A DNA stretch of 40,987 nt from Gammaproteobacteria bacterium (GCA_041488375.1 JBGPPD010000004.1:1-40987); one strand, 5' to 3'; counted from the first letter of the stretch, positions 2,298 through 38,564 are shown. A program made the numbers and translations. Notes: generated by a model from the sequence alone, not told the origin.

Positions 2298-3690
2298 TGC
2301 GCCGCGCAATCTTGCCCGAGGCCGCCATCGCCAGCGAGACCACGAAGTTGACCACTGCCGGCACCTTGTGCCGGGGCAGCGACGCTCGGCAGTGCTCGAG
2401 GATCTCGCGCTGGAGTGCCTGTGCGCCGCCTTTCGTCTCATCCGGCGGAGAGTTCAGGACCACGTCGGCGACGACCAGCGCGCCCGTGATCGGGTTCTTC
2501 CTCGCCCGCACCAGGGAAACACGCACCCCGGGATGGGTATTGATCACCGCCTCGACTTCTTCCGGGTGGATCTTCAGGCCACCCACGTTGATGATCCCGC
2601 CGCGCCTGCCGACGAAGAAGTAGCGGTCGCCACGCAGCTCGACCATGTCGCCCGTGTCCACATAGCCCCCGGCATCGACGAGGACCTCGCTCTGCTCGCC
2701 AAGGTAGCGCGCGGCGGTGCGTGAGGAACGGATGCGCAGCGACCCGTCGACCACCTTCATGTCCACGTTCGCGCCTGTTTGCCCCACGAGGCTCGCCGGG
2801 AATCCCGCCCGACCGTCCCCGACCTCGAATCCCACGCCCGCCTCGGTCGACGCGAACGCGTGGACGATCTTCGCTTGCGGGTAGAACGACCGGAGATGGT
2901 CCAGGATCGACTGGTCGGCAATCTCGCCCGACAGGCGCACGTACTGCGGCTTGAGCGCATGCGCGGCCGGGCTCATCAAGGCGCTGCGCCAGTGGGTCGG
3001 CGTCCCGAGGATGTGCGTTACGCCGCGCGCACCGGCGCGCTCCAGGAAATCGCTCATCGCCTCGCCGGCGCTCGACAGCACGAGCGAACCGCCGCCGAGA
3101 GTCGCGCGCAGGAGAATCTGCAAGCCGCCGTAACGCCGGATATCGTAGTAGGTGCTCCACAGCGCCGGGCCCACCGGCGTTCCACGCGCCATCATCGCGC
3201 CCGCCAGGCTCGCAAGGGTGTGCACGACCATCTTCGGCGCGCCGGTGGTCCCCGAGGTCATCAGGATCCACTCTGTCCGCAAGCGCGCCTGGCGATCGGG
3301 TGCACCGGGCGCGAGTTTCAGGCTGCAGGCGACGACTGGGCCGGGAGTCGACTCACCCGGATCGGGCGCAGCCCGATCCGAGACCAACGCATCCACGCCC
3401 GCGGTAGCGATGACGTACGGCACGTGCTCCGCCGCAAGGTCCGGAGGGCAAAGCACGATGCGGCGCGCCACGCCATCGAGCTCGATCAGGGCCAGCGCCG
3501 CCGCGAGTTGGCTCCTCGTGGCGAGGAACACGCAACGCCCGCGCAGTTCCTCAAGGCGGCCACCGAGGCTTGAGCCGCCCGCCAGGTCATCCAGCGCGAC
3601 GCTGCCGTCAACTCCCCACAGTGCGCGCCGGGCGAGCCTGTCCGCGGCGCTCAACGAGTTCCAGAGCGAGCTCCAGTCAATTTGCGGCAT
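2290..3690 (-). CDS. ANL-superfamily adenylate-forming enzyme (acyl-CoA/acyl-ACP ligase)
   Basis: MTSGTTGAPK, FASTEAG, VDTGD, GRRGGIINVGGLKIHPEEVE, SGKIAR; 466 aa; start overlaps the ACP stop. Confidence 0.88.
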   Translation of the reverse strand: MPQIDWSSLWNSLSAADRLARRALWGVDGSVALDDLAGGSSLGGRLEELRGRCVFLATRSQLAAALALIELDGVARRIVLCPPDLAAEHVPYVIATAGVDALVSDRAAPDPGESTPGPVVACSLKLAPGAPDRQARLRTEWILMTSGTTGAPKMVVHTLASLAGAMMARGTPVGPALWSTYYDIRRYGGLQILLRATLGGGSLVLSSAGEAMSDFLERAGARGVTHILGTPTHWRSALMSPAAHALKPQYVRLSGEIADQSILDHLRSFYPQAKIVHAFASTEAGVGFEVGDGRAGFPASLVGQTGANVDMKVVDGSLRIRSSRTAARYLGEQSEVLVDAGGYVDTGDMVELRGDRYFFVGRRGGIINVGGLKIHPEEVEAVINTHPGVRVSLVRARKNPITGALVVADVVLNSPPDETKGGAQALQREILEHCRASLPRHKVPAVVNFVVSLAMAASGKIARRNA

Positions 3691-3922
3691 CTTCGTAGAA
3701 TTGGATGAAATCGCCCAGGGTCACCGGAAAATTTGCTTCGGCGGTGGCACTGAACGGATCGACCCCCAGCGCGTCCTCGAGGCGCGCGACGATGATCGCG
3801 AAGCACAAAGAGTCGAGGCCCGACTCCAGCAATACCAGGTCGTCGGTCAGAGGCGCCAGCGTCTTGTCCTGCTCCTTGGCGACCAGTTTGAACTGCTCCA
3901 GCACGGTGGACCTCACGGACAT
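3677..3922 (-). CDS. Acyl carrier protein (81 aa)
   Basis: MSVRSTVLEQF...LLESGLDSLCFAIIVARLEDALG...; GLDSL phosphopantetheinylation site; acidic. Start ATG 3922 lies inside the longer track ORF. Confidence 0.88.
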   Translation of the reverse strand: MSVRSTVLEQFKLVAKEQDKTLAPLTDDLVLLESGLDSLCFAIIVARLEDALGVDPFSATAEANFPVTLGDFIQFYEDAAN

Positions 3923-3960
3923 GATGCCGACTCTCCGGATAGGGTTGGGGTGAGCGCCGC

Positions 3961-4344
3961 TCAGCGCGGCACGAAGAACTCGGTATAGGAAGCGATGCGG
4001 CCGTCCCGCACCTGCGCCAGATCGACCAGATCGGTGAGCACGGTGACCCCGGTGATCCTGGAGCGGATGCTGGCGCGCCAGTGCACCGCGGCCTTCGCGT
4101 CCTCGATGATCATGCTTTGGATCGCCAGGTCGCTGACCTGGAAAGACTTGACCAGCAGCGTGAGCCACTTGCGCGCCTCGGCAAGGCCTTGCGCGGCGAT
4201 TGCCATGCGGCTCGCCGGGCTCGCGCCCGCGATCTCGAAGCGCACGTCGTCCGCAAATGCCCGGCACACCCCCTCGAGGTCGCCGCTGGCGCGGGCGGCA
4301 TACAGTGCCTTGAGCAGGCGCTCGATCTCGGTGCGATGCGTCAC
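3961..4344 (-). CDS. NTF2/SnoaL-like protein
   Basis: GTG 4344 after AAGGA; 127 aa: LYAARASGDLEGVCRAFADDVRF...DLAQVRDGRIASYTEFF, a typical SnoaL pattern. Confidence 0.8.
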   Translation of the reverse strand: MTHRTEIERLLKALYAARASGDLEGVCRAFADDVRFEIAGASPASRMAIAAQGLAEARKWLTLLVKSFQVSDLAIQSMIIEDAKAAVHWRASIRSRITGVTVLTDLVDLAQVRDGRIASYTEFFVPR

Positions 4345-4355
4345 GGTTTCGTCCT

Positions 4356-5291
4356 TCAAGCGAGGGCAGCCCTGAACTGCGCGCCGATGACCTTCATGGC
4401 TGCGCGCGCATACGGTATCACGCCGGTCATGCCGTAAAAGAGGTGGGTCATCCCCGCGTGGCAGGTATATTTCACCGCCACACCCGCCTGCGCCAGCCGG
4501 TCGGCGTAAGCCTTGCCCTCGTCGCGCAGCGGATCGAACTCCGCGGTGTGAATGCAAGCCGGCGGCAATCGGCTGAAGTCGGCCGCGCGCAGCGGCGAGA
4601 TGCGCGGATCCGCCACGTCCATCCCTGCGGGGATGTAGTACTCGAGATCCCGGGCCATCGTCGCCTTGTCGACCAGGGGAGCGTCCGCGTAGGCAGCGCG
4701 CGACTCGGTTTGCCCGGCAAAATCCATGATCGGACAGAGCAGCAATTGCGCCGCAAGATTCAGTCCCGCCTCCCCGCTGGCAAGCTGGCATACAACCGCC
4801 GCGAGCGTTCCGCCCGCCGAGTCTCCGCCCACTGCGAGCCGACCCGGAACGATACCCAATTCCGCGGCATTGCGCGCGATCCAGGCTGCTGCCGCGCATC
4901 CATCCAGCACCGCCGCAGGAAACTTGTGCTCGGGCGCCAGCCGATAGTCGACCGACACGAGCCTGCAGCCGCACTCGTTGGCGAGCGCTCTGCACAGGCC
5001 GTCGTGTGTGTCGAGACTTCCCGCGACGAGTCCGCCACCGTGGAAGAACACCAGTCCGGGTAACGGTTGGCTTCCTGCACCCGCTGGGGTGTAGACGCGA
5101 ACCGGGATCGGGCCGCCGGGCCCTGGCAGGGCGCTGTCGGCCGCGCCGCCGATCGCCAGGTTGCCCTGCGAGAAGCCCATCAGCTTGCGGAACGCCTCCC
5201 GGCGCTCGCCCAGGGTCAGGCTCGCCGGATCCGTGGGCCCGGCCGCCGCGAGCATGTCCAGGATCCGCTTGAGGTGGGCATCAAGTGGCAC
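4356..5291 (-). CDS. Alpha/beta hydrolase, HSL (Aes-like) esterase
   Basis: FFHGGG oxyanion motif, DYRLAPEH, GDSAGG nucleophile elbow, EFDPLRDEG, HAGMTHLF. Confidence 0.92.
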   Translation of the reverse strand: MPLDAHLKRILDMLAAAGPTDPASLTLGERREAFRKLMGFSQGNLAIGGAADSALPGPGGPIPVRVYTPAGAGSQPLPGLVFFHGGGLVAGSLDTHDGLCRALANECGCRLVSVDYRLAPEHKFPAAVLDGCAAAAWIARNAAELGIVPGRLAVGGDSAGGTLAAVVCQLASGEAGLNLAAQLLLCPIMDFAGQTESRAAYADAPLVDKATMARDLEYYIPAGMDVADPRISPLRAADFSRLPPACIHTAEFDPLRDEGKAYADRLAQAGVAVKYTCHAGMTHLFYGMTGVIPYARAAMKVIGAQFRAALA

Positions 5292-10710: not shown

Positions 10711-12114
10711 TCAATCCGCCTGACTGCCAATCCGATCTTGCGCAGCCTGTCGATCGGAATTCACCTTGGACACGATCCACGGCTGCTTCCCGCTCGACGT
10801 CACCGGCATCTCCTGCACCTCCACGACCTCGACGTTGACACCGGGCCCCATCGCCTGCTCGCCCGTGAACCGGATGAATTCGATGTCGCGCGCAGCAATC
10901 GTCCGATTGCTGCGCAGCTCGATGCGCAAAGCATTGACTTCCTCCTGCACCACGCGGAACTGATGGATCGATGGCAGCGCGTCGAACATGTGCGTGAAAA
11001 ACATGGCGTGCACCTCCTTTCCGCCGGGCGTAAGAATCCTGTCGTGAGTCCTGCCATCCACGCTGGAGATCAGCGGCATGGTGCGACCACAGGCGCACGC
11101 CCGGTCTGTCGGCACCACGAAATCACCTATGGCGTAGCGCACCAGTGGCGCCGCCTTTTCGTTCAAATTGGTGATCACCAGCTCGGCGCGCTCGCCCGGC
11201 CTTGCATCCCGGCCGTTGGTCAGAAATTCGAATATGTGATTCTCATGCGACAGATGGAGACCGCCACTCGGGCATTCATACGCGATGACGCCGAGCTCCG
11301 TGCAACCGTACTCGACAAGAGTCTTGCAACCAAGCACCCGCTCGATCAAGCTGCGCTGGGCCTGCAGCAGGTTCTCCCCCGTGACAGCGGCGGCGCGTAC
11401 GCCGATCGCCTTTCCGTCGAGGCCAAGCTCCTCCAGAGTGGCGCAGAACCGGTACAAGCCCGAAGCCATGCCGCGCATGAATGCGGGCTCGAACGCCACG
11501 AACGCCTCATACGTCCTGCGCACGCTCGCCGGGTCCTGGTGATAGACGTCGACGAGCCTGATATTCTTCATGCGCCACGACGCCCTGCGCTTGATTGCTG
11601 CCAGGCGCCCCGACCAGCGGTTCCCCACATTGCGCGCTCCGGCCCAGATGAGCCCTTCGCGCACGCCGAAATCCGTTCCCCACCAGCGCCGCCCGCGCGA
11701 CCACGGCGCGAAGGTATTCATGGCCACGGATTCCTTGCTGCGACGAAAAGGAAACGGCTCGCCGGTCGACCCGCTCGATGGCCAGACCTCGTGCGCCTCC
11801 TGCCCGCCATCCGCGAAAAAGCGGGAATAGTCAGCGCGAAGCGTCGCTTTGGAGACCGTCGGCAACCTCTTCAGGTCACCGCTATTTCTGATGTCGGCTG
11901 GAACGATGCCCAGCCGCCTGAATGCCTCTCTGTAATACGGGACCCTTGCGTAGCAGTGCTCGATGAGCGCTCGCAAGCGTGTCAGGCGGTCATCCTCCAC
12001 GGTGTGGAACGGCGCCCACTGCAGCTCTTCGAGCCTTTCCAGCCACGGCAAGTAGTTCCACCCGCGAACGCGCTGGATGGAGTCGAATACAAACTTGGCA
12101 ACCCGTTCATTCAT
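10711..12114 (-). CDS. Phenylacetate-CoA ligase family adenylate-forming protein (CapK-like)
   Basis: VPYYREAF, LPTVSK, SSGSTGEP, EYGCTE, IAYECP, ITNL..APLVRYAIGD, CACGR, SSGK; polysaccharide-locus context. Confidence 0.85.
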   Translation of the reverse strand: MNERVAKFVFDSIQRVRGWNYLPWLERLEELQWAPFHTVEDDRLTRLRALIEHCYARVPYYREAFRRLGIVPADIRNSGDLKRLPTVSKATLRADYSRFFADGGQEAHEVWPSSGSTGEPFPFRRSKESVAMNTFAPWSRGRRWWGTDFGVREGLIWAGARNVGNRWSGRLAAIKRRASWRMKNIRLVDVYHQDPASVRRTYEAFVAFEPAFMRGMASGLYRFCATLEELGLDGKAIGVRAAAVTGENLLQAQRSLIERVLGCKTLVEYGCTELGVIAYECPSGGLHLSHENHIFEFLTNGRDARPGERAELVITNLNEKAAPLVRYAIGDFVVPTDRACACGRTMPLISSVDGRTHDRILTPGGKEVHAMFFTHMFDALPSIHQFRVVQEEVNALRIELRSNRTIAARDIEFIRFTGEQAMGPGVNVEVVEVQEMPVTSSGKQPWIVSKVNSDRQAAQDRIGSQAD

Positions 12115-13305: not shown

Positions 13306-13656
13306 TCAGTACATGACGTAGATGAACTCGGATACGTCGACGCTCTCCTCCTCAACATGGCGCAGGGATCTCGCGAGACCTGCCATCGCGGGCGCGAGGT
13401 TCGCGAGCAAGCGCACGTCGCCGCCCCCCCAAACGTCAGCAAAATCAGCCTCGACCGCTTGTGGCGTCGAGCAGCCGCCCTTCTCAAAATCACCCTTCTT
13501 CATCTCGGTGGACGTCCTGCGCACGAAGTAGCTTGGGGCATCCTTGTCCAAGCGCGTTTCGAGGAAGGTCACCCCCTCACCCTTCAGGCGTCTGGAAAGC
13601 GGCAACAGCTGCTCGTCAAACAGCCGATCAATATCCCTGTCAAGATCCTCAGTCAC
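13306..13656 (-). CDS. Hypothetical soluble 116-aa protein ending in ...DVSEFIYVMY
   Basis: GTG 13656 after GGAG overlaps the carbamoyltransferase stop and fills the gap to the GT4 gene. Acidic, with no hydrophobic segment. Confidence 0.72.
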   Translation of the reverse strand: MTEDLDRDIDRLFDEQLLPLSRRLKGEGVTFLETRLDKDAPSYFVRRTSTEMKKGDFEKGGCSTPQAVEADFADVWGGGDVRLLANLAPAMAGLARSLRHVEEESVDVSEFIYVMY

Positions 13657-15499
13657 GGCCGTACTCCGTCTTCCAGTTGTCGTTGTCGTCAAACTCGGGT
13701 TGTACGTCCTTCCACAGCAGGAACTCCTCCAGGACGAGCAGGTCGATCCCGGTTCGCATGAAGCAGGTGTATGCATCCTTCGGCGACTGCACGATCGGCT
13801 CGCCGCGGACGTTGAACGACGTATTCACGACAACGCCGATGCCTGTGATGTCCTTGAATGCCCTGATCAAACGATGGAATTCCGGATGATCGTCCCGGTG
13901 CACCGTCTGCACTCGCGCACTGTAGTCGACGTGGGTGATTGCGGGGAGGTCCGACCGGACTTGATTTACCACGCGCAGCATGTCGTCATCGGCGTCGCTG
14001 TCGAACAATCCAGACTTAACCGGCATGCGCCGGTCGTCGCGAACAGGGGCGACCAGCAGCATGTACGGGCTCTCGCCGGTCATCTCGAAGTACTCACTTG
14101 CGTCTTCGGCGAGAACGGCGGGCGCAAACGGCCTGAACGATTCGCGGAATTTCACTTTCAGGTTGAGCTTGCTCTGCGTGTCATGCCTGCGTGGATCGGC
14201 CAGGATCGAGCGCGCGCCCAGCGAACGCGGACCGAACTCCATGCGACCCGAGAAGTAGCCCACCACCTTTCCGTCGGACAAGGCCTTGGCGACGACCCTT
14301 GCGCGCTCCTCGCCGTCAACGATGCGTTCGCAGGGGTAGTCTTGGCGGTCAAGAAACGCGGCGATCTCGTTCGCCTTGTACGCCGGACCGAGGTAGCTGC
14401 CGCGCTGGCTGTCGCGGCCGTTAATCGCACGATGGCGCGGTTCGCCGAAGTACGCGTGGTTGACGAGGAGCGCCGCACCCAGCGACCCGCCGGCGTCTCC
14501 CGCGGCGGGCTGTATCCAGAGGTTGTCGAAAACCCTTTCCCGCTGCAGTACGCCGTTCGCGACGCAATTGAGCGCCACACCGCCGGCCAGCACGAGGTTC
14601 CTTGCGCCAGTCTGCCTTCTCGCGCGACGGGCGAGCGCAAGCACGAGTTCGGTCGTCACCGCCTGAATCGACGCGGCAAGGTCCATCTCGCGTCGCGTGA
14701 TGCGCGATTCGGACTTGCGCGCGCTGCCGCCGAACAGCGCTTCGAATTTCGCATTGGTCATCGTCATGCCGTCGACGTAGCCGAAATACTCGAGGTTCAG
14801 GCGATAGGACCCGTCCGGCTTGATGTCGATCAGGTGGTCCTTGATGGCCTGCGCATAGCGCGGCTGGCCGTAGGGGGCGAGCCCCATCAGCTTGTACTCC
14901 CCAGAGTTGACCTTGAAGCCGCAGTAGTACGTGAACGCGCTGTACAGCAGGCCCACCGAGTGCGGATAGTCGATCTCTTCGAACAACTCCACGCGTGCTT
15001 CCCGGCCCGCTCCGATCGAGGTCGTCGACCACTCGCCCACGCCGTCCAGCGTGAGGATCGCGGCTTCGTCGAACGGTGATGGGTAGAACGCGGACGCCGC
15101 ATGCGCCATGTGGTGCTCGGTAAAGAGCACTTCGCCGAGCTTTCCCGTCGTCCCGATCGCTTTTTCGACGTGATCCTTGACCCAGATCTTCACACCAAGT
15201 ATCGACTTCGCCGCGCGTCTGAACTGCTCGCGCGCCGGCTCCCCGGCGTGCATGCAGTTCCGGACCACGCGATCCCAGGTGTGGAGCGCCTTGTCGTAGA
15301 AGACTACGGCGTCAAGCTCGTCGGGCTCTGCACCCGCCTCCTCGAGACAATAGTTGATCGCGTTCCTCGGAAAGCGGGGATCGTGCTTGCGGCGGGTGAA
15401 GCGTTCCTCCTGCGCCGCGGCCACGATGCGTCCATTCTGGACCAGTGCGGCTGCCGCGTCGTGGTAGAAGGCGCTGATTCCCAGGATGGTCCTGCTCAT
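13649..15499 (-). CDS. Carbamoyltransferase, NodU/CmcH/TobZ family (copy 1)
   Basis: ILGISAFYHDAAAA, QEERFTRRKH, EHHMAHAASAFY, GEYKLMGLAPYG, LAGGVALNC, PAAGDAG, EFGPRSLGARS, KFRESFRPFAP, THVDYSARVQTV, NTSFNVRGEP. ATG 15499 in an ATGA overlap. Confidence 0.95.
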   Translation of the reverse strand: MSRTILGISAFYHDAAAALVQNGRIVAAAQEERFTRRKHDPRFPRNAINYCLEEAGAEPDELDAVVFYDKALHTWDRVVRNCMHAGEPAREQFRRAAKSILGVKIWVKDHVEKAIGTTGKLGEVLFTEHHMAHAASAFYPSPFDEAAILTLDGVGEWSTTSIGAGREARVELFEEIDYPHSVGLLYSAFTYYCGFKVNSGEYKLMGLAPYGQPRYAQAIKDHLIDIKPDGSYRLNLEYFGYVDGMTMTNAKFEALFGGSARKSESRITRREMDLAASIQAVTTELVLALARRARRQTGARNLVLAGGVALNCVANGVLQRERVFDNLWIQPAAGDAGGSLGAALLVNHAYFGEPRHRAINGRDSQRGSYLGPAYKANEIAAFLDRQDYPCERIVDGEERARVVAKALSDGKVVGYFSGRMEFGPRSLGARSILADPRRHDTQSKLNLKVKFRESFRPFAPAVLAEDASEYFEMTGESPYMLLVAPVRDDRRMPVKSGLFDSDADDDMLRVVNQVRSDLPAITHVDYSARVQTVHRDDHPEFHRLIRAFKDITGIGVVVNTSFNVRGEPIVQSPKDAYTCFMRTGIDLLVLEEFLLWKDVQPEFDDNDNWKTEYGRD

Positions 15500-16527
15500 G
15501 GTGCCTGCCGCTTCCCCAGGAGCGCCGAGATCGCCGGCGCCACTGCTTTCGCCAGGGCTTCGTGCCCGGTCCTGGTCAAGTGACCGTCGTTCGGGAAGTA
15601 GAACGACCTGCGAACATCCGGAGCATGCTGCAAAAGCAGCGGCAGCGGGTCGTGAAATGTGCCGCCCGCAGCCTCTGTGGCCGAGCGCAGGCGCGCCTGG
15701 TAGGTGCGGGGACTCGAAATCCCGCAAACGTAGTGGTACATCGGAATGGGCACCAGCATCACCGGTTTGGTGTGGCCGCCGATCCATTGGGCGATCAGCG
15801 CCCGCATGACGAGCCATGCCGGATTGCTGGAATTCTCGTAATCCTTGATCGGCTGATAGCGCAGCGTGGCGAGCACCCTGTCCTTCAGCCCGCTCCTGAT
15901 TACAAGATTGTCGAACCGTGGACTGCGTTTCAGGCGATTGAGCAGGCGCTTGAGTCCGGGAAATCGCTCGACCGCCGATATGTACTGCCTGTCCTCCGCG
16001 GAGAGTTCTGCCGGATCGACCGGCCGCTTGCTGGGCGGAACGCCTCGCAACTCGAGCTTTCCCTCGCGCAGTGTGTAGAAAGGCTTTGCGTAGAGCACTC
16101 GCTCGCCCGCTTCGTTGGCGAAATACCGATAGCGCGAACCCACCCGGCGGATGTTCTCGACGAATACGGCGATCACCAGGAGGTCGTGGTCGATGTCCTG
16201 CGCGTACTCCCGGTAAACGAGATAGTGCTGATCGAGTCCGGTTGCGGGCAGGCCGAAGTTGTAGACCTGGAGATCAGGCAGGATTCTCTCGAGGTGATCG
16301 CCATAGCGATAACCGTTGGATACGCCCTCGCCGGCGGTGAACGAATCTCCGAACAGCAGAATCCGGCGCGTGCCCTCCTTGCGCCGGCGCTCGAACGGAT
16401 GGTCGCAGCGAAAACCGGTCTCGTTCGTGCGCACGAGATAGCCGCCACCTTCGTGCGGGACGCGTGCCCTGGTCTCCGGAACGAAGCGAAAGCCGATGAC
16501 CGGGTGATATTCATAGATCTGGCGCAC
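15496..16527 (-). CDS. SGNH/GDSL-family protein with no evident signal peptide
   Basis: LLFGDSFTAG (block I Ser), VYNFGLP, FPNDGHL (DxH). Probable GTG start at 16527 overlapping the upstream TAG. Confidence 0.85.
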   Translation of the reverse strand: MRQIYEYHPVIGFRFVPETRARVPHEGGGYLVRTNETGFRCDHPFERRRKEGTRRILLFGDSFTAGEGVSNGYRYGDHLERILPDLQVYNFGLPATGLDQHYLVYREYAQDIDHDLLVIAVFVENIRRVGSRYRYFANEAGERVLYAKPFYTLREGKLELRGVPPSKRPVDPAELSAEDRQYISAVERFPGLKRLLNRLKRSPRFDNLVIRSGLKDRVLATLRYQPIKDYENSSNPAWLVMRALIAQWIGGHTKPVMLVPIPMYHYVCGISSPRTYQARLRSATEAAGGTFHDPLPLLLQHAPDVRRSFYFPNDGHLTRTGHEALAKAVAPAISALLGKRQAP

Positions 16528-17660
16528 TATGGCAGCAGAGGTTTCATTGGTGAACGCGATGATACGCCCGCGCACAAAAAATCTGCGCAGCAGTACCTGA
16601 TGACCCGCCGCACCGGATTTGCGATGGAAATGAAGCTCAACCTTCCGCCGCGCCGCTGTTGCTCGCCTTGCAACAACACGAGGAGCCCGACGAATGCGCT
16701 GTCCACGTACGAGACGTTTCCCATATCCAGATCGATATCCCTGCCGGCGCGAACCACGTTGGAGAAGCAGGCCCGCAAGGGGTGGATATTCTGCATTGTC
16801 CACCCGCCCCGCAAGCGGATCAGAAAGCCGTCTTTCTCCTGAATGGTTTCGATACCCGGCGTTGCCAACTGATCGGCGGCCGACTTGCGCAGCAGCAGAT
16901 ACCAGGCGTAGGGAAGCACGCGCGTCATCACGAGCGCAAGAAATGCCATCCCATCCCGCAAATAGCGCCGGCTCAGCGCAGGATCTTCCTTGATCCGCCA
17001 AAGCCACTCCAGGCCGCTGTTCTGCACCCACGCCGGTGCCCGCTGCACTGCGCCTGCCACGAAATTCAGGACGGCGCCGAGGTGGCTGATCACTGGCACG
17101 TTCACCTGCTGCAGATTGCGTTGAATCCAGGCCTGGCCCTTGCGCGCCCCGAGCGATACGACGAGAAAATCCGCGTTGCTGGCGTTGATGTCCTGAATGG
17201 TCTCTTCGCTGCTCATCTCCTCGATGGAGCCGAATCCGGGAGACTTGTGTCCAACGCAAGTCAGACCCCCGTTCTCCAGCGAAAGTGCCCGGCATGCCGT
17301 TTCGGCCGCTCCATCAGGGCCGCCGAAGAAGTAGATCGACAGCTGTTCCCCAGGGCCGCGGCGAAGCAGTTCGAACAAGCTGGAGCCAGCGACCCGCCCG
17401 GGGATCGGAATGCCGAGCAAGCGCGCAATCCATACTACCGGCATGCCATCCGCAATGCTCAGGTCGCTGCGTATGACTGAATCGCGAAACTCCCGGTCGG
17501 CGAGGCTGGCCACGATGAAGTTCAGGTTCGGGGTCGAAAGAAAGCACTTCCGCCTTTTCTTGGCAGCGTCGCGAATCCTGCCCGCGGCCCCTGCCAGATC
17601 CACAGCGTCAAACGGCAGTCCGAGCAGGCAGTAGACATTGCGCTCGAACACATCAGCCAA
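16527..17660 (-). CDS. WecB/TagA/CpsF glycosyltransferase with C-terminal STAS domain
   Basis: LSTPNLNF, IADGMPVVW, RVAGSSL, LGARKGQAW, RAPAWVQNSGLEWLWR; C-terminal LRGGW...IDLDMGNVSYVDSAFVGLL. Start (TTG 17660 or GTG 17651) uncertain. Confidence 0.9.
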   Translation of the reverse strand: MADVFERNVYCLLGLPFDAVDLAGAAGRIRDAAKKRRKCFLSTPNLNFIVASLADREFRDSVIRSDLSIADGMPVVWIARLLGIPIPGRVAGSSLFELLRRGPGEQLSIYFFGGPDGAAETACRALSLENGGLTCVGHKSPGFGSIEEMSSEETIQDINASNADFLVVSLGARKGQAWIQRNLQQVNVPVISHLGAVLNFVAGAVQRAPAWVQNSGLEWLWRIKEDPALSRRYLRDGMAFLALVMTRVLPYAWYLLLRKSAADQLATPGIETIQEKDGFLIRLRGGWTMQNIHPLRACFSNVVRAGRDIDLDMGNVSYVDSAFVGLLVLLQGEQQRRGGRLSFISIANPVRRVIRYCCADFLCAGVSSRSPMKPLLP

Positions 17661-18573
17661 TCCTTGTCTCCCGGACAATCTGTTCGATCGCCCGCCTCTT
17701 CCCGACCAGGAGCGCACGCCACTGATACCGGCGAACAAATTTCCGGAACTCCGCATCTTCATAGCGTGGCTTGCCTTGAAGGGCACTCTTGATCCAGCCC
17801 CATAACATTGCCAGGGCGCCGAGCACATAGGGTTTCTCGTTCATCCTGTAAATGGCGCTTGCCGCCATGTAGAGGAAGCCGGTGCCCATGAAATACTGGC
17901 CGTAGCCATGGCGAGCGCGGCCGCTGTAGATGCTCCGCTGGCTGGATCCCATCGGTCGCAGGTGAACAAAGCGCAATTCGGGCTCGTCCCAGCTGCATGC
18001 AATCCAGCCCCGCATGCGGCAACGATGACAATCGATCCCGTCCCACATGACCTCGCGGACGAACCCGCCAATGCCCTTGAAGCATGAAACACGATAGAAC
18101 TTGGTCATGCCGAGGGACATTTCGTCGCCATGTCCTTCGGCGATCAGGCGTCCGCTTCGTTCGACATAGGCCTTGCCGCTGCAAGTCGCAATGCACGGGT
18201 TGTCCGACATCCGATCCATGAGAATTTCGAAATAGCGCGGCGGCAAGCGCAGATCGAGATCCAGCTTGCAGAGATACCCGTAGTCGTCGGGATTGACCGT
18301 CTCGTAGCCGGCGTAGAACGCCTCAATGACCCCGGGACCGACCGCCCGCCGTCCACGATCGGCGCGAGTTACAACCGCGATCCAGTCGTGCCGCTTGGCA
18401 TACTCCGCCAGTATTGCCGGAGTCTCGTCGCTCGAACCATCGTCTACGATGACCCACTTTGCCGGCAGGATGGACTGCCCGATCACGGAATCCAGCGTTT
18501 GCCGCATGTACGCCGCCTCGTTGCGGCACGGCGAAATCAGCAGGTAGTTCCGATTCGAGCCAGCGCTGGCCAT
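17653..18573 (-). CDS. Glycosyltransferase family 2
   Basis: LLISPCRNEA, IVDDGSSDET, KLDLDL (DxD), MWDGID. Confidence 0.9.
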   Translation of the reverse strand: MASAGSNRNYLLISPCRNEAAYMRQTLDSVIGQSILPAKWVIVDDGSSDETPAILAEYAKRHDWIAVVTRADRGRRAVGPGVIEAFYAGYETVNPDDYGYLCKLDLDLRLPPRYFEILMDRMSDNPCIATCSGKAYVERSGRLIAEGHGDEMSLGMTKFYRVSCFKGIGGFVREVMWDGIDCHRCRMRGWIACSWDEPELRFVHLRPMGSSQRSIYSGRARHGYGQYFMGTGFLYMAASAIYRMNEKPYVLGALAMLWGWIKSALQGKPRYEDAEFRKFVRRYQWRALLVGKRRAIEQIVRETRIG

Positions 18574-20961: not shown

Positions 20962-23900
20962 ATGACAATGTCGACCCGCGAAACGGCTGGCTACAAGGTT
21001 TTGTTGGGCGCTTTTCTGCCCGCGCTGCTCGCCGCGCTCGTTCTAGTCGGCTGCTCGGAACCGGCCCAGGATTCCGCTGCGCCGGTTGCAGGCGCAGCTA
21101 CGCCGAGTCCTATCGTCCTCTCGGCGAGTGCAGCCTCCACCTCCACCATCAATCTCAGCTGGTCGACATTCACCGGCAACCTGCCGACGACGGGCTACCG
21201 CATATACCGGGGAGGTACGCAGCTTGTCGTCGTGGGCAATGTCACCACTTATCTGGACACTGGCCTGAACGCCGGCACGGCTTACGTCTACACGGTCGAG
21301 GCTATCGACACGGCCGGGAATCCCGGCGGGTTATCGGCGGCTGCCATCGCGACCACGGGGACACCGGACACCACGGCACCCACCACGCCGGCAGGCCTGA
21401 CTGCGACCTCGTTTTCGTCCTCCCAGATCAACTTGAGCTGGACCGCGGCCACCGACAATGTGGCGGTCACAGGATATGGCATCTACCGTGACGGCGCCTT
21501 GATCACCGTCTCGGCGAATACCACCACCTACCAGGACACAGGCCTCAATCAGTCCACGACCTATACGTATAACGTGGATGCCGTCGACGCTGCGGGAAAC
21601 ACCTCGATTCAGTCATTGCCGGCTAGTGCGACCACAGCGACGCCTGACACGACGCCACCGTCAATCCCGACCGGTCTTACAGCGACCGCGATTTCAGCGT
21701 CTCGCATTGATCTCAGTTGGACGGCATCAACAGACAATGTGGGCGTCACGGGCTACATCATTCGGCGGGACGGTTCGATCCTGAACACGGCGGGCAACGT
21801 CACAACTTTCCAAAATACCGGACTTACTCAATCTACTACCTACTCCTATACTGTCGAAGCCATTGACGCGGATGGCAATGCGTCGGGGCAGTCGGCCTCG
21901 GCAAGCGCTACTACGGCCACCATCGACACGACCGCCCCGTCGACGCCGACGGGCCTCGCTGCCAGCGCTGTTTCGTCTTCCCAGATCAACCTCAGTTGGA
22001 CGGCGTCCACCGACAATGTGGCGGTCACGGGCTACCGTATTCGCCGGGGTGGCGCGCTTTTGGTGACTTTGGGTAACGTAACGACCTACCAGAACACTGG
22101 CCTTGCGCCTTCCACCACCTACGCGTACACAGTCCAGGCCTTCGATGCCGCGGGAAATTCCTCTGCGCAATCGACAGCGGCAAGCGCAACGACGCAGGCC
22201 ACTCTCGATACCACCCCGCCGACGATCCCCGGTGGCCTGACTGCCAGCGCCGTTTCGTCGACCCAGATCAATCTCTCCTGGTCGGCTTCCACGGACGATG
22301 TGGCGGTCACGGGCTATCGCGTGTATCGGGGAGGCACGCTTCTGTCCACGGTACCGGGCAACGTCACGGCCTTTCAGAATACGGGCCTTACACCCTCCAC
22401 GACTTATTCCTACACCGTCGACGCCGTTGACGCTGCCGGGAACGCCTCCGGCCAGACTTCCGCGGCAAGCGCGACGACGCCGGCGCCAGGAGCGATTTCG
22501 GTGTCCCTCGCCGCCGCCCGCACGTCGGGAGTCGCACCGCTGGCGGTGTTCTTTGACGCCTCGGGCACCACCGATTCCGGGACAAGCAGGCCCTTCCACG
22601 AACTCGAGTACCGCTGGGACTTCGGTGACGCAGCCGGGTCGCCGGTCAGCGGTACCACATGGAATACGGGGAGCGGAGCGGGCGCCAACAGCCGCAATGC
22701 GGCGAGAGGGCCAATGGCGGCGCATGTCTTCGAATCCCCCGGCAACTACACGGTGACGCTCTTCGTATCAAACGGGGCAAGCACGTCGTCGGCCAATGTC
22801 CTGATTACAGTCCTTGACCCCAATGTGGTTTTCTCCAGCACCAATACGCGCTGTTTCTCGACCTCGGGAACTTTCACCGACTGCCCTGCCGGCGCAACGA
22901 CGGTTACCACTTCCGATTTCGATTCAGCGATCAGCGGAAACATCGGTACCGGGAGGCGGCTGCTCTTCCGCCGCGGCGAAACGTTCCAGGCGTCAGCCCC
23001 GAGTTCCATCAAGGTGACGGGGCCCGGGATCGTGGGAGCTTATGGCAGCAGCGGCGCGAAACCGGTCATCCAGGCGGTGGCGGGCTCGCTTGCGTCCGAC
23101 AACGGCATCGTCATGTTCTCGAGTTCCACGACCCCGACGATGAAGGACTGGCGCATCATGGACCTCCAGATCGACGGCGCCAGCAGAAGCACGACTGGAA
23201 TATACGAAGATGGTGGCGTCGACCAGGTAACGCTTCTGCGTCTGGATATCCACCATTTGAGATGGGCCATTGGATTCAATGACGGCATCCTCGACTACTA
23301 CAATTCGAACGGGAAACCCGGCCACCATGTCTTCGACCAGATTGCCGTGGCTGATTGCACGACTCGCAACATTCTCGGGGTCTATTCTTACTACGGCGCG
23401 GCAAAGCATTTTGCGCTTCTGGGAAATGATTTCAACAATAACGGGACCGGGTCGCACGTAGTCCGCATCACTTACACGGATACCGCGGCGATCAGCAATA
23501 ACACCGTCACCGGAGCCAGTACCACTGAGCACAACTTGAAGTTGCAGGCGATGGCCTGGACGCAGGCTAGCGTGGACAACCCCGGAGGCGTCGGGACCTA
23601 TTCGCAGAGCATCGTGATCTCGGACAACAAATTCGTCGGCAGTGGGGAACAATGGTCGGAGGCCATTGGTCCGGAGGACAACGCGGTTGATGAGCGGGTG
23701 CGGCAACTTATATTTGAGCGCAACTGGTTCACAGGAAGCGCGAACAACGTGACTATGCTGCAAATATGGTCGAAAGAGACGACCATAAGAAACAACCTGT
23801 TCGATGCGACGGGAATGGGATCTCACGAGCCTCTTTACGTCACGCGCCGCGGTGGCTCGGGACAGATGACCCCGACTGACGTCTGGGTCTACAACAACAC

Positions 23901-24255
23901 GTTCTATAGTTCGGATGCCAGCAATGATTTCACCGCCATCAACCTCGACTCGGTGGTGACAAATGTCACGATCAAGAACAATCTGGCCTATGCGCCAAAC
24001 GATTCAAGCCATGCGTTCAAGGCCGGCAACGGGGCTTCCGGTGTCGTTGCCACGAACAACTCAACGAATGCACAGGTGGGCAGCACATCTCCAGGGTTTG
24101 CAAGCGCGACGCCTTCGGTGCCGGCAGACTTCAAGCTGAATGCCGGAAGCTATGCCATCAACGCCGGTGCAACCGTACCGGTGTTTTCCGATTTCTTTCT
24201 GACAACCAGGCCGCAAAACGGCCTGTTCGAAATGGGATTTATGGAGAGGCCCTAG
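20962..24255 (+). CDS. Lipoprotein: 5 fibronectin type III domains + PKD + right-handed beta-helix domain
   Basis: Lipobox LVLVG-C (Cys31); five FN3 units (INLSW...YRIYR...YxDTGL...YTVEAxDxAGN); APLAVFFDAS..YRWDFGD..HVFESPGNYTVTL (PKD); Asn-rich beta-helix; C-terminal DFKLNAGSYAINAG..DFF..RPQ..MGFME. Confidence 0.88.
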   Translation: MTMSTRETAGYKVLLGAFLPALLAALVLVGCSEPAQDSAAPVAGAATPSPIVLSASAASTSTINLSWSTFTGNLPTTGYRIYRGGTQLVVVGNVTTYLDTGLNAGTAYVYTVEAIDTAGNPGGLSAAAIATTGTPDTTAPTTPAGLTATSFSSSQINLSWTAATDNVAVTGYGIYRDGALITVSANTTTYQDTGLNQSTTYTYNVDAVDAAGNTSIQSLPASATTATPDTTPPSIPTGLTATAISASRIDLSWTASTDNVGVTGYIIRRDGSILNTAGNVTTFQNTGLTQSTTYSYTVEAIDADGNASGQSASASATTATIDTTAPSTPTGLAASAVSSSQINLSWTASTDNVAVTGYRIRRGGALLVTLGNVTTYQNTGLAPSTTYAYTVQAFDAAGNSSAQSTAASATTQATLDTTPPTIPGGLTASAVSSTQINLSWSASTDDVAVTGYRVYRGGTLLSTVPGNVTAFQNTGLTPSTTYSYTVDAVDAAGNASGQTSAASATTPAPGAISVSLAAARTSGVAPLAVFFDASGTTDSGTSRPFHELEYRWDFGDAAGSPVSGTTWNTGSGAGANSRNAARGPMAAHVFESPGNYTVTLFVSNGASTSSANVLITVLDPNVVFSSTNTRCFSTSGTFTDCPAGATTVTTSDFDSAISGNIGTGRRLLFRRGETFQASAPSSIKVTGPGIVGAYGSSGAKPVIQAVAGSLASDNGIVMFSSSTTPTMKDWRIMDLQIDGASRSTTGIYEDGGVDQVTLLRLDIHHLRWAIGFNDGILDYYNSNGKPGHHVFDQIAVADCTTRNILGVYSYYGAAKHFALLGNDFNNNGTGSHVVRITYTDTAAISNNTVTGASTTEHNLKLQAMAWTQASVDNPGGVGTYSQSIVISDNKFVGSGEQWSEAIGPEDNAVDERVRQLIFERNWFTGSANNVTMLQIWSKETTIRNNLFDATGMGSHEPLYVTRRGGSGQMTPTDVWVYNNTFYSSDASNDFTAINLDSVVTNVTIKNNLAYAPNDSSHAFKAGNGASGVVATNNSTNAQVGSTSPGFASATPSVPADFKLNAGSYAINAGATVPVFSDFFLTTRPQNGLFEMGFMERP
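21110..22480 (+). repeat. Five tandem diverged ~280-bp FN3-coding repeats
   Basis: DTT(A/P)P linkers recur near 21368, 21646, 21925 and 22207. Shared DNA includes tcccagatcaac..agytggac and gacaatgtggcggtcac. Confidence 0.85.
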
Positions 24256-36458: not shown

Positions 36459-36608
36459 TCAGAACAGTGTGTAGATGAACGGCGCGACAGCTGAACCGTG
36501 AGCCAGAACGATCAGAACCCCCAACAGCGCCATCATGATGAAGATCGGCCAGAGCCAGTACTTCTTTCGGCTGCTCAGAAAAGCCCACAATTCCCTGATC
36601 ATCGACAT
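36459..36608 (-). CDS. Small membrane protein, SxtK-like / DUF5989-type (49 aa), C-terminal FIYTLF
   Basis: Below the ORF-track length cutoff. Manual translation: MSMIRELWAFLSSRKKYWLWPIFIMMALLGVLIVLAHGSAVAPFIYTLF*. RBS AGGAAAG; lies between the SxtJ-like gene and the carbamoyltransferase. Confidence 0.9.
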   Translation of the reverse strand: MSMIRELWAFLSSRKKYWLWPIFIMMALLGVLIVLAHGSAVAPFIYTLF

Positions 36609-36617
36609 GGTGCTTTC

Positions 36618-37037
36618 CTAGAACTGGTTGGTCATGGAATCTGGCGGCGGTCCGGGCGGATCACGCGGTATCCAGTACGAAACCGCGCGCGCATCGCGCT
36701 TGAGACGCAGCGGGTCCTTTCCCGTGAGACGCATCGCAACCCCTAGCGGCGTGAGAACCCCGTAGAACAACACGCCGAGCGCGATCGGGCTGACCACCTT
36801 GCCGAGCAGAACGCCCAACCTGGTCCACCAGCGATTGAGCCCTGCGAGCGAAGACGGCCTGAGTAGCGCGACCACGGCAAACAGCCCGGACGCCAGGAAC
36901 GCCCACCATCGCGGCGCTTCAGCGTGCAAGAGCGGCACTCCACCTATCAGGAGAAACGCCGCCGCAAACACCAGGCCAAAGCTGCGATCGGACGAACTCT
37001 CCAAGCGCTGTTCCCGAGTCAGGTCTTCATGTGCCAT
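36618..37037 (-). CDS. SxtJ-family membrane protein
   Basis: SDRSFGLVF, LNRWWTRLG.LLGKVVSPIALGVLFYGVLTPLG..MRLTGKDPL, SYWIPR, SMTNQF. Confidence 0.88.
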   Translation of the reverse strand: MAHEDLTREQRLESSSDRSFGLVFAAAFLLIGGVPLLHAEAPRWWAFLASGLFAVVALLRPSSLAGLNRWWTRLGVLLGKVVSPIALGVLFYGVLTPLGVAMRLTGKDPLRLKRDARAVSYWIPRDPPGPPPDSMTNQF

Positions 37038-37149: not shown

Positions 37150-38523
37150 TTATCTGGCCGAATTCAGCATCCCGTGAGCGAGCAAATAGTCCGTCACCAA
37201 CTGCGCCGCCAACCGCTGGCCTGCGGCGTTCCAGTGGTCGTCGCCGCCGTGGAAATAAAGAGCGTTCGGGTGGTTCGCGCGAAAGACATCGTAGAGGCTG
37301 ACGAACGGCACGCCCAGCGCCCGGGCCGCGTCCTCCAGCGGAGCGATCTGATTGCGCCCGTCATACTCAGGATAGCGCTTGCGGTCGACCCGCCAATCGT
37401 CGTACTGATCCGTCACGTCAAACGGGTGCGGGATAAAGAGGAAAGCCAGCGGCACGCCGCTCCGTGCGGTCACGTCGCGCATTCTCCGCAGCACTGCACG
37501 CATCAGCGCAATTTCGTAGCGCGCAGAGGCGCTCCGCGGAGTCAAGCTGACGTTTGCGCTGTAGTAATCCGTGTAGATATTGGTGACTACGTCGTCTCGT
37601 TCGGCGACGAAGTTCCGGTACTCGCGCTCCGATTCAGCCAGCAGGAAGTCCATGTCGATGAGGTCCGCCGTATTCCCTCTCTTGTAGCGTTGCAAGATAT
37701 TTCGCACTCCCCGCTTGAGTATCGACTCCTGCTGGCCGAGTGCGAAAAGCATGCGCAGCTTGCGGTCGAGTTTCCAGCGGTTGGTCACCAGACCGCCGTC
37801 GGCGCCAAGCAGGAACATCTTGTTGCGCATGAGATCGCCGTAGTCGTTGCCAGCGAAGATCGCCATGATGACAAGAGAAGGACGGAGCCCGGGAAGTTCG
37901 TCTTCCATCTTGAGGCTCTCCTGATCCGGCCCATAGGAGCTCACGCCCGCGTTGACGGTCTCCACTTGCTTGCCGAGGCGGCGCGAGAGCATCGCGCCGA
38001 GTTGGGCCACGAAAGTCTCCTCCTCCGCAGTGTAGAACGCGTGAATGAACGAGTCACCATAGACGGCTATGCGAATCCCCTCGCCGGCAGGCTGCAATTC
38101 ATTGCCGCGAAAGCCGGCGGAATTGATGCGATGCGTCACCGTGACGCCGCCATTCAATGGAGCGCGCGTCATCGCGCTCCGGCGATTCGGAATGAACTTG
38201 AAAATCAGCCGGTCGTCGTACTGGTAAATGGGGCGCAAGCGCGGCCCAAGCAGGCTTTCTCCTGCGATTTCGGCAATGGCGAGCATGAGGAGGCTGGTGA
38301 CCGCCAGAACCAGGATGCGTGCGCGAATCGCGGCTGGGAGAAACGAGCAAATCGCAATGCCTCCACCAGCGAAAGCGATCAGCGCCTGAAAACCGCCAAA
38401 TCCTCGCTCGCCCCCATAGAACGGATGATCGGAAATCGCATACGCGATCATCGTCGCACCTATCAGGAGCAACAGGATCCTCACAATCCGGGTGCGGGAG
38501 TCAGACACAGGATTGGAATTCAT
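37150..38523 (-). CDS. Membrane-anchored SGNH/GDSL-family protein
   Basis: Three N-terminal hydrophobic segments; INSAGFR, VYGDSF, NAGVSSYGP, FAGND, YFHGGDDHWNAAG. Start 38523 or 38541. Confidence 0.87.
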   Translation of the reverse strand: MNSNPVSDSRTRIVRILLLLIGATMIAYAISDHPFYGGERGFGGFQALIAFAGGGIAICSFLPAAIRARILVLAVTSLLMLAIAEIAGESLLGPRLRPIYQYDDRLIFKFIPNRRSAMTRAPLNGGVTVTHRINSAGFRGNELQPAGEGIRIAVYGDSFIHAFYTAEEETFVAQLGAMLSRRLGKQVETVNAGVSSYGPDQESLKMEDELPGLRPSLVIMAIFAGNDYGDLMRNKMFLLGADGGLVTNRWKLDRKLRMLFALGQQESILKRGVRNILQRYKRGNTADLIDMDFLLAESEREYRNFVAERDDVVTNIYTDYYSANVSLTPRSASARYEIALMRAVLRRMRDVTARSGVPLAFLFIPHPFDVTDQYDDWRVDRKRYPEYDGRNQIAPLEDAARALGVPFVSLYDVFRANHPNALYFHGGDDHWNAAGQRLAAQLVTDYLLAHGMLNSAR

Positions 38524-38564
38524 GACAATCAGTCTATACACAAGGCGAAGGGGCGCCTATTTCG

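Follow-up and report, generated by a model that had tools for sequence, protein, structure and literature searches.

In a 40,987-nucleotide (nt) stretch of DNA from a gammaproteobacterium (Gammaproteobacteria bacterium, GCA_041488375.1, JBGPPD010000004.1:1-40987; the whole stretch is called the window below), three adjacent genes at positions 13306-16527 encode an SGNH-like protein, an O-carbamoyltransferase and a small acidic protein whose C-terminus is a tyrosine-containing, aromatic hexapeptide. We consider it slightly better than an even bet (probability about 0.55) that these genes specify a soluble carbamoyl-tyrosine relay, presumably cytoplasmic, that decorates a sugar of an exopolysaccharide. 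This interpretation is partly supported: comparative genomics argues strongly for it, and from there we infer the covalent steps and the identity of the acceptor.

According to this proposal, the carbamoyltransferase would activate carbamoyl phosphate with ATP (in its relative TobZ, the YrdC-like domain makes carbamoyl-AMP and the Kae1-like domain transfers the carbamoyl group). The group would be loaded not on the final acceptor but on the phenol of Tyr113, in the tail of the small protein, with the helical body of that protein docked on the enzyme. The O-carbamoyl-tyrosine tail would then swing into the SGNH-like protein and carbamoylate its Ser62; aryl carbamates are a class of compounds that carbamoylates serine hydrolases. 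Finally, a glycan hydroxyl or amine would receive the carbamoyl group from the SGNH-like protein; this glycan probably contains N-acetylglucosamine (GlcNAc) or glucosamine (GlcN). The elements concerned are the following (aa, amino acids):

15496-16527, minus strand: SGNH-like protein, 343 aa; proposed carbamoyl acceptor and transferase
16342-16350, minus strand: GDS motif, G60-D61-S62 (translation GDS); Ser62 is the presumed nucleophile
15580-15588, minus strand: D314-G-H316 (translation DGH); presumed acid and base of the catalytic triad
13649-15499, minus strand: O-carbamoyltransferase of the NodU/TobZ/NovN type, 616 aa (Pfam)
13306-13656, minus strand: small acidic soluble protein, 116 aa; proposed tyrosine carbamoyl carrier
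13309-13326, minus strand: hexapeptide F111-I-Y113-V-M-Y116 (translation FIYVMY); the Tyr113 codon is 13318-13320
13664-13667, minus strand: GGAG, a Shine-Dalgarno-like site read from the sequence, within the 3' end of the carbamoyltransferase gene

All three genes lie on the minus strand with overlapping start and stop codons, as the first-pass annotation of this DNA had stated. The SGNH gene begins with a GTG (16527-16525) that has one base in common with the TAG of the glycosyltransferase gene upstream (WecG-STAS, described below), the ATG of the carbamoyltransferase gene overlaps the SGNH stop codon in an ATGA, and the GTG start of the small open reading frame (ORF) is part of an 8-nt overlap (GTGACTGA) with the carbamoyltransferase stop, the GGAG (13667-13664) being located 7 nt upstream of this GTG. 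Each protein was scanned for its largest Kyte-Doolittle 19-residue mean (KD19), and no transmembrane (TM) segment or signal-like stretch was detected in any of the three: the values were 0.99 for the SGNH-like protein, 1.38 for the carbamoyltransferase and 0.82 for the small protein, compared with 2.2-2.5 for three membrane proteins elsewhere in the window. The small protein contains 23 D+E versus 15 K+R (isoelectric point (pI) 4.6) and ends in ...VDVSEFIYVMY, directly before the stop codon. KD19, pI and translation thus agree with the initial description of an SGNH protein devoid of signal peptide and TM segment, and of an acidic partner, also without TM segment, with this C-terminus.

According to extracts of PMC12148441, DltX and certain MBOATs, PatA among them, have as their C-terminus an FXYXXF sequence that constitutes an "acyl shuttle", the Tyr of which is acylated; PatA acetylates the Tyr of its own hexapeptide, and PatB, an SGNH protein, uses the acetylated hexapeptide and hardly a scrambled one. 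The first-pass annotation had invoked F-I-Y-x-x-F as the shuttle motif of DltX and MBOAT tails that feeds an SGNH protein; the motif and its role are found in these extracts, which do not show the exact letters quoted for DltX.

The carbamoyltransferase matches two Pfam profiles over essentially their full length, Carbam_trans_N (E 1.9e-93, 314.1 bits, cut-off 24) and Carbam_trans_C (E 1.4e-71, 239.9 bits, cut-off 27), and its closest solved relatives are NovN (9s2t, E 1e-93), GdmN and TobZ. It is not NodU itself, since it scores 143.5 bits with the NodU equivalog model of NCBIfam (NF041651), far below the cut-off of 1000.

The Pfam matches of the SGNH-like protein, to GDSL, ALGX and SGNH profiles, are all sub-threshold; they include Lipase_GDSL_2 (E 1.5e-6, 29.3 bits for a Pfam cut-off of 32.9) and ALGX (E 0.003, 17.8 bits for a cut-off of 26.5), the latter over residues 279-336, the region of D314/H316. 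All 31 SGNH homologues have G60-D61-S62, N125, D314, H316 and H322, and G97 is nearly invariant; the spacing of the acid-base pair is D-x-H, not D-x-x-H. Because its catalytic residues are invariant, the protein appears to be under selection as a catalyst, and it is predicted to be catalytically intact.

The Tyr-tailed protein family and its gene neighbors

The small protein had been labeled an orphan, a label that gives way to an unnamed protein family. It has no Pfam or NCBIfam match, even at E<=10, it is present in a single copy in its own genome, and a word-indexed search returned three clusters only. A profile search of 1.84 billion representatives recovered 473 cluster representatives of the family at E<=1e-3 (197 at E<=1e-10), a number that is a lower bound for the size of the family, its members being clusters at 50% identity. 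Nearly all are 105-135 aa long, and the alignment extends to the last residue of the query.

Tail statistics were drawn from the best 150 profile matches. Tyr is found at position -4 in 147 of them, in keeping with the expectation, set beforehand, of an invariant terminal Tyr among homologues; Met is at -2 in 144, Ser at -8 in 135 and Phe at -6 in 125. The last residue is Phe or Tyr in 146 (F in 97, Y in 49). It is Y in the window, so that the terminal F of the motif cited in the first-pass annotation is not what this protein carries. The family consensus, [D/E]-V-S-P-F-[I/V]-Y-V-M-[F/Y], is always at the extreme C-terminus. The three members that lack Tyr at -4 end early, one of them stopping at ...EVSP, right before the hexapeptide; since such early-ending members are among the matches, the profile does detect tail-less sequences. 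The body of the protein is weakly conserved (mean column identity of 30% in alignment A2), and the near-invariant residues of this alignment, besides the tail Tyr, are Y43, F57, W76, S109 and M115.

When a loose version of the tail pattern was applied to the 11,859 stop-to-stop frames of the window and of the 45 related loci described below, 51 frames matched: 46 correspond to the small protein or its homologues, one to a DUF5989 protein of the window, one to another TM micro-ORF, and three are chance-like. From these counts, we take the tail not to be a chance feature. That the small ORF might be a spurious frame in a GC-rich region is ruled out by the breadth of the family and by the gene fusions reported below, and we regard it as a member of a real, unnamed protein family. 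Note that one related locus (L029:2621-2863, plus strand) has a frame of 80 residues that includes a hydrophobic segment and terminates in ...ASFIYGRF, some 1.2 kb upstream of its SGNH gene; this frame may encode another DltX-like micro-protein.

AlphaFold2 modeled the free small protein with a predicted local distance difference test (pLDDT) score of 85.8, as helices 2-26, 54-58, 65-76 and 79-98, with a long extended stretch (27-53) between the first two helices and with the last 16 residues at pLDDT 55-65. A Foldseek comparison of this model with the PDB gave nothing at E<=0.001, a wide VIA-align search gave only generic helical hairpins (best Z 4.9), and the protein atlas matches are all unnamed "hypothetical protein" clusters, all with scores below 0.9. 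The small protein has no match in 60 genomes of relatives of the window's genome, which argues for a sporadic, probably horizontally spread gene.

To what extent the three genes travel together was examined in related loci, which were sought in one genome per species with an alignment of 27 sequences of the small protein. The 45 loci obtained come from about ten phyla (Planctomycetota, Acidobacteriota, Gemmatimonadota, Myxococcota, Desulfobacterota, Spirochaetota, Verrucomicrobiota and Ignavibacteria, among others) and include those of a Rubrivivax, a Chromatiales and a Syntrophomonadaceae metagenome-assembled genome; synteny constitutes an independent test in this set. A carbamoyltransferase 58-77% identical to that of the window lies upstream of the small ORF in 44 of the 45 loci. 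Where a locus extends to the 5' end of the carbamoyltransferase gene (39 loci), an SGNH homologue (36-62% identical) is always present; it has the same orientation in 37 of these loci and a divergent one in two, and it usually overlaps the carbamoyltransferase start. The linkage to a NodU-type enzyme and an SGNH protein, previously noticed in the window, is therefore a recurrent one. Between the first in-frame start of the small ORF and the carbamoyltransferase stop, the overlap is 14 nt long in 15 loci and 8 nt long in three. In four loci, the carbamoyltransferase gene and the small ORF are separated by an extra gene, and three of these extra genes encode methyltransferase-domain proteins of 390-460 aa (L030:5503-6762, L036:5583-6848, L040:5569-6942). 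At L043:7331-8500, a methyltransferase-domain protein is encoded after the small ORF.

In one locus (L046), the carbamoyltransferase and the small protein form a single 729-aa ORF. A second full-length fusion, P0157 (730 aa, with the N and C carbamoyltransferase domains of Pfam), was the one protein returned by a search for longer fused forms, and P0105 is a fragment of a third; the same search, which is weak evidence of absence, gave no fusion between an SGNH protein and a small protein. For the L046 fusion, AlphaFold2 gave a predicted template modeling score (pTM) of 0.89, with a pLDDT of 75-96 in the domain homologous to the small protein and below 50 in the last ten residues. In this model, the body of the small protein is predicted to be docked on the carbamoyltransferase with its tail free, an arrangement consistent with a swinging arm. 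Prediction of a complex between the SGNH-like protein and the small protein, each given as an alignment and with no controls, yielded ipSAE (interaction prediction score from aligned errors) values of 0.01 and 0.00, which speak neither for nor against contact.

The genomic context was surveyed by Pfam annotation of 94 flanking ORFs from 21 loci. A CE4 polysaccharide deacetylase is found beside the three genes in nine of these loci and glycosyltransferases in nine, one or both being present in 17; further matches are to sugar epimerases, acyltransferases and one capsule-synthesis protein. The glycan genes of the window itself comprise two CE4 genes, five glycosyltransferases and one flippase-type gene. 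Because CE4, glycosyltransferase and flippase-type genes surround the three-gene set, we infer that the target is likely a glycan, perhaps a de-N-acetylated GlcNAc unit. The large subunit of carbamoyl-phosphate synthase is encoded in two of the 21 loci, both from Planctomycetota (L004:9331-12588 and L013:8231-11680), and an adjoining gene of this kind is in line with the carbamoyl donor being supplied locally. No MBOAT was found among the scanned ORFs of the window or the 94 flanking ORFs.

On the minus strand of the window, the genes follow each other in the order GT2, GT2, WecG-STAS, SGNH-like protein, carbamoyltransferase, small ORF, GT4 and PaaK-like ligase, and the gene directly upstream of the SGNH gene is the following:

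16527-17828, minus strand: WecG/TagA/CpsF glycosyltransferase with a STAS (anti-sigma antagonist-like) domain fused at its C-terminus

The operon ends with a 467-aa adenylate-forming enzyme (10711-12114, minus strand) that has PaaK- and F390-synthetase-like NCBIfam matches at E 1e-31, far below the cut-offs, and no Pfam match at E<=0.01. Inside the polysaccharide cluster, a 1097-aa protein (20962-24255, plus strand) contains five fibronectin-III repeats and PKD domains, together with a sub-threshold, rhamnogalacturonan-lyase-like beta-sheet match.

A membrane-anchored sibling set

The window contains a second group of genes, assembled around another carbamoyltransferase:

37150-38541, minus strand: TM-anchored SGNH protein whose N-terminal part has about three hydrophobic segments; ALGX 28.3 bits for a cut-off of 26.5
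36618-37037, minus strand: SxtJ-family protein (Pfam)
36459-36608, minus strand: DUF5989 protein, 49 aa, ending in ...VAPFIYTLF; Pfam 91.4 bits, single TM segment
34618-36447, minus strand: second carbamoyltransferase; GTG start after GAGGGG

The two carbamoyltransferases of the window, which are 53% identical, are the only two in this genome, and each has a Tyr-tailed neighbor; the SGNH proteins of the two sets share 30% identity over 134 aa. The tails of the small protein and of the DUF5989 protein have the same residue at -9, -7, -6, -5, -4 and -1. The likeness is confined to this terminal nonapeptide, the small protein having neither a Pfam match nor a hydrophobic segment. The positive-inside rule predicts that the tail of the DUF5989 protein, like the domain of the TM-anchored SGNH protein, faces the periplasm, as in DltX and DltD, with the carbamoyltransferase in the cytoplasm.

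The relationship between enzyme and partner was analyzed starting from the carbamoyltransferase, a query that favors no partner type. A strong match was found in 74 other genomes out of 400 genomes of the phylum, and the best 29 loci were examined. In the single locus whose enzyme is closer to the carbamoyltransferase of the three-gene set (62% versus 53% identity), the small protein and an SGNH protein are present, and DUF5989 and SxtJ are absent. The other 28 loci, the enzymes of which are closer to the second carbamoyltransferase, comprise none with the small protein, 27 with DUF5989 and 25 with SxtJ; every DUF5989 tail detected has Tyr at -4. Among the relatives (L047, L049-L057), DUF5989 occurs with a sister-clade carbamoyltransferase in five cases out of five. 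A metagenome scan with the carbamoyltransferase gave 10 loci, and the sole enzyme of the three-gene clade among them (L060, 83% identical) has an SGNH gene upstream and belongs to a sequence that ends before the position of the small ORF.

In a tree, all 39 carbamoyltransferases linked to the small protein form one clade (support 0.85), which includes the enzyme of the window. With four more distant carbamoyltransferases taken as the root, which is an assumption, and with DUF5989-linked sequences that are partly incomplete, this clade is nested within the DUF5989-linked enzymes. The type of partner thus follows the carbamoyltransferase clade. Given this correspondence and the nesting, the soluble small protein seems to have replaced the SxtJ/DUF5989 pair once in evolution.

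The DUF5989 modules occur in two gene orders, SxtJ-DUF5989-carbamoyltransferase and carbamoyltransferase-SxtJ-DUF5989, and L075 has two tandem DUF5989 paralogues. In L076, a DUF5989-type carbamoyltransferase module with an SGNH gene after it has, directly upstream, the gene of a true MBOAT (3578-4825, minus strand; Pfam E 2.4e-27) that ends in ...EFIYFDF; this one locus therefore combines a carbamoyl-type set with a classical acyl shuttle, and this MBOAT serves as a positive control for the tail pattern and for MBOAT detection.

The same gene set is described as sxtI-sxtJ-sxtK-sxtL in extracts of PMC2679770, in which SxtJ and SxtK are "unknown", acting "in conjunction" with SxtI, and in which the gene table gives SxtL, a GDSL protein, a "decarbamoylation" role. 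A 2026 preprint (bioRxiv 10.64898/2026.06.11.731795) still calls the role of SxtJ and SxtK with SxtI a hypothesis, and our literature search gave no report of heterologous SxtI/SxtJ/SxtK carbamoylation. From its size and its position after sxtJ, DUF5989 is a candidate counterpart of SxtK. It is possible, with a chance that we place a little short of even, that protein tyrosine is a general carbamoyl carrier, the whole SxtI-like branch never loading its final acceptor directly but first the FxYxx[F/Y] tail of a dedicated partner, be it the soluble small protein or SxtJ/DUF5989, and that an SGNH-type enzyme makes the delivery.

Weighing the relay against other explanations

Several points weigh against a carbamoyl relay. 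NovN, GdmN, TobZ and NodU carbamoylate their final acceptors, small molecules or oligosaccharides, directly, and we know of no carrier, obligatory Tyr-tailed partner or SGNH neighbor for any of these enzymes. There is no membrane to cross in the cytoplasm, so that the rationale of the Dlt and Pat shuttles would not apply there. In the two AlphaFold models, the tail is disordered, and neither model places Tyr113 in an active site. The SGNH assignment comes from motifs, the Pfam scores being below the curated cut-offs, and the best match to a solved structure has an E-value of 0.008.

Other points concern the comparative data. The 45 loci were retrieved with the tail as a DNA pattern, and the conservation of the tail in this set is therefore not independent; likewise, the invariance of Y113 in alignment A2 is circular, because that alignment included only sequences with Tyr at -4. 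One locus (L006) has no carbamoyltransferase in the 320 nt that extend upstream of the small ORF to the contig end. As to whether enzymes of the three-gene clade occur without the small protein, the survey provides one informative locus, and three metagenome carbamoyltransferases of the DUF5989-linked clade have no SxtJ or DUF5989 within 3 kb. Finally, an SGNH protein like that of the window was detected by tblastn in 5 of 28 DUF5989-type loci within about 1.5 kb, and in 1 of 5 within about 7 kb; since so few DUF5989 loci show one, the Tyr tail does not always have a detectable SGNH neighbor.

The best placed of the other explanations, which we rate as unlikely, gives the small protein the role of a non-covalent accessory subunit: as an adaptor, a lid or a plug mimicking the acceptor, it would control access to the active site or recruit the glycan. 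The carbamoyltransferase would then carbamoylate the sugar directly and the SGNH-like protein would be a separate esterase, either removing O-acetyl groups to free a hydroxyl or trimming carbamoyl groups like SxtL. Indeed, the fusions, like the high pTM of the model of one of them, associate the small protein with the carbamoyltransferase only, the extended segment 27-53 of its model resembles a partner-binding strap, the sibling DUF5989 modules are only weakly linked to an SGNH gene, and the solved homologues of the enzyme act directly. The roles given in the extracts of PMC2679770 (decarbamoylation for SxtL, unknown for SxtJ and SxtK) are also compatible with such a subunit. What it leaves unexplained is that the disordered C-terminal nonapeptide is the best-conserved part of the protein, and that an invariant Tyr occurs there in the exact register of an acyl motif that feeds SGNH proteins. 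Moreover, an SGNH gene found in 39 of 39 loci, usually overlapping the carbamoyltransferase start, fits a partner of fixed stoichiometry better than an optional trimmer.

We think it improbable that the small protein is instead a precursor, the C-terminal peptide of which would be carbamoylated on Tyr and cut off by an esterase-fold peptidase to yield a small peptide metabolite or cofactor, as in the crocagin pathway. There, according to extracts of PMC10070186, the esterase-like protein CgnD releases a C-terminal, Tyr-containing core, and the cluster also includes a carbamoyltransferase; the abstract of PMC13174530 describes a cluster for a peptide made by ribosomes and modified after translation (RiPP) that yields homocitrulline, and the methyltransferase-domain gene inserted before the small ORF in three loci could be read in the same direction. 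However, a confidently folded, conserved "leader" of 100 residues would be atypical, the fusion to the carbamoyltransferase is hard to square with a released product, and the tail matches the shuttle motif, whereas cores often vary. The neighbors point the same way: glycan genes occur in 17 of the 21 loci, and the 94 flanking ORFs include no oxygenase, radical-SAM enzyme or RiPP recognition protein (CgnB/E-like proteins were not searched for specifically), the only matches related to peptide processing or export being an M29 peptidase in one locus and HlyD in two.

That carbamoyl-Tyr on the small protein is an end point, namely a reversible switch that the carbamoyltransferase writes and the SGNH hydrolase erases so as to regulate polysaccharide synthesis, is very improbable: a writer, an eraser and a substrate would suit three obligately linked genes, and a STAS-domain glycosyltransferase lies directly upstream in the window, but nothing links the small protein to a regulatory output, the neighbors vary between loci apart from glycan enzymes, a co-translated writer and eraser would run an implausible, ATP-costly futile cycle, and the STAS fusion is not seen in the other loci, in which the sole WecG homologue (L039) matched residues 77-290 of the 433-residue query and the WecG family of Pfam only.

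Comparison with known systems

If the three genes do specify a carbamoyl relay, the tyrosine acyl shuttle would not be bound to MBOATs or to the crossing of a membrane; it would be a portable device, used here for carbamoyl by an unrelated family of ATP-dependent enzymes, and O-carbamoyl-tyrosine would represent a new carrier-protein chemistry. The relay would also provide a hypothesis for the long-unexplained SxtJ and DUF5989 proteins beside the sister carbamoyltransferases, with, on the wider reading of the SxtI-like branch, a role for companion genes listed as "unknown" since 2008-2009, and their GDSL neighbors would be transferases rather than hydrolases. O-carbamoylation would then be a common, overlooked decoration of environmental exopolysaccharides. 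The family itself is new, unnamed and widespread (at least 473 clusters, many phyla), and a precise function can be proposed for it. The first-pass annotation knew of no described soluble version of the shuttle, and our literature search agrees: within its scope, which did not extend to supplementary files, no paper was found that ties carbamoyltransferases, DUF5989 or the present family to a tyrosine shuttle, and DltX and carbamoyl appear to co-occur only incidentally.

TobZ, NovN, GdmN and NodU belong to the same two-domain enzyme family as the carbamoyltransferase of the three-gene set. The small protein can be likened to the acyl and peptidyl carrier proteins, which are also small, acidic, helical proteins that offer a flexible arm to successive enzymes; its arm, however, would be its own C-terminal Tyr and not a phosphopantetheine, and no fold match was found. 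The crocagin pathway (CgnA, CgnD and CgnI), as presented in extracts of PMC10070186, similarly combines in one cluster a ribosomal peptide with a C-terminal Tyr, an esterase-fold enzyme and a carbamoyltransferase. The three-gene set differs from it in having no recognized dioxygenase or peptide-binding protein, in the folded domain of 100 residues that can be fused to the enzyme, and in its glycan neighbors.

The DUF5989 (PF19451) and SxtJ (PF19588) proteins are closer: they are found beside the sister-clade carbamoyltransferase (53% identity), and the tails VAPFIYTLF and VSPFIYVMF are alike. By contrast with the 49-aa, single-TM DUF5989 protein and the multi-TM SxtJ, the small protein has no TM segment, is encoded downstream of the carbamoyltransferase and appears to replace both.

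With DltX-DltB-DltD and PatA-PatB, the three-gene set has in common a hexapeptide at the extreme C-terminus, with Tyr at -4 and aromatic residues at -6 and -1, carried by a flexible segment, as well as an obligate SGNH-like partner that keeps Ser, His and Asp, and a setting of cell-envelope polysaccharide genes. It departs from them in that the donor enzyme would be an ATP-dependent carbamoyltransferase of the Kae1/YrdC type, with no MBOAT, in that the group proposed to be transferred is carbamoyl and not acetyl or D-alanyl, and in that the carrier is a soluble helical protein of 116 aa instead of a membrane micro-protein or the tail of an MBOAT, with no membrane being crossed. As far as sequence can tell, the three-gene set therefore has the shuttle tail and the SGNH partner of the DltX/PatA family and lacks its MBOAT and membrane features, and we regard it as a variant of that family rather than a member.

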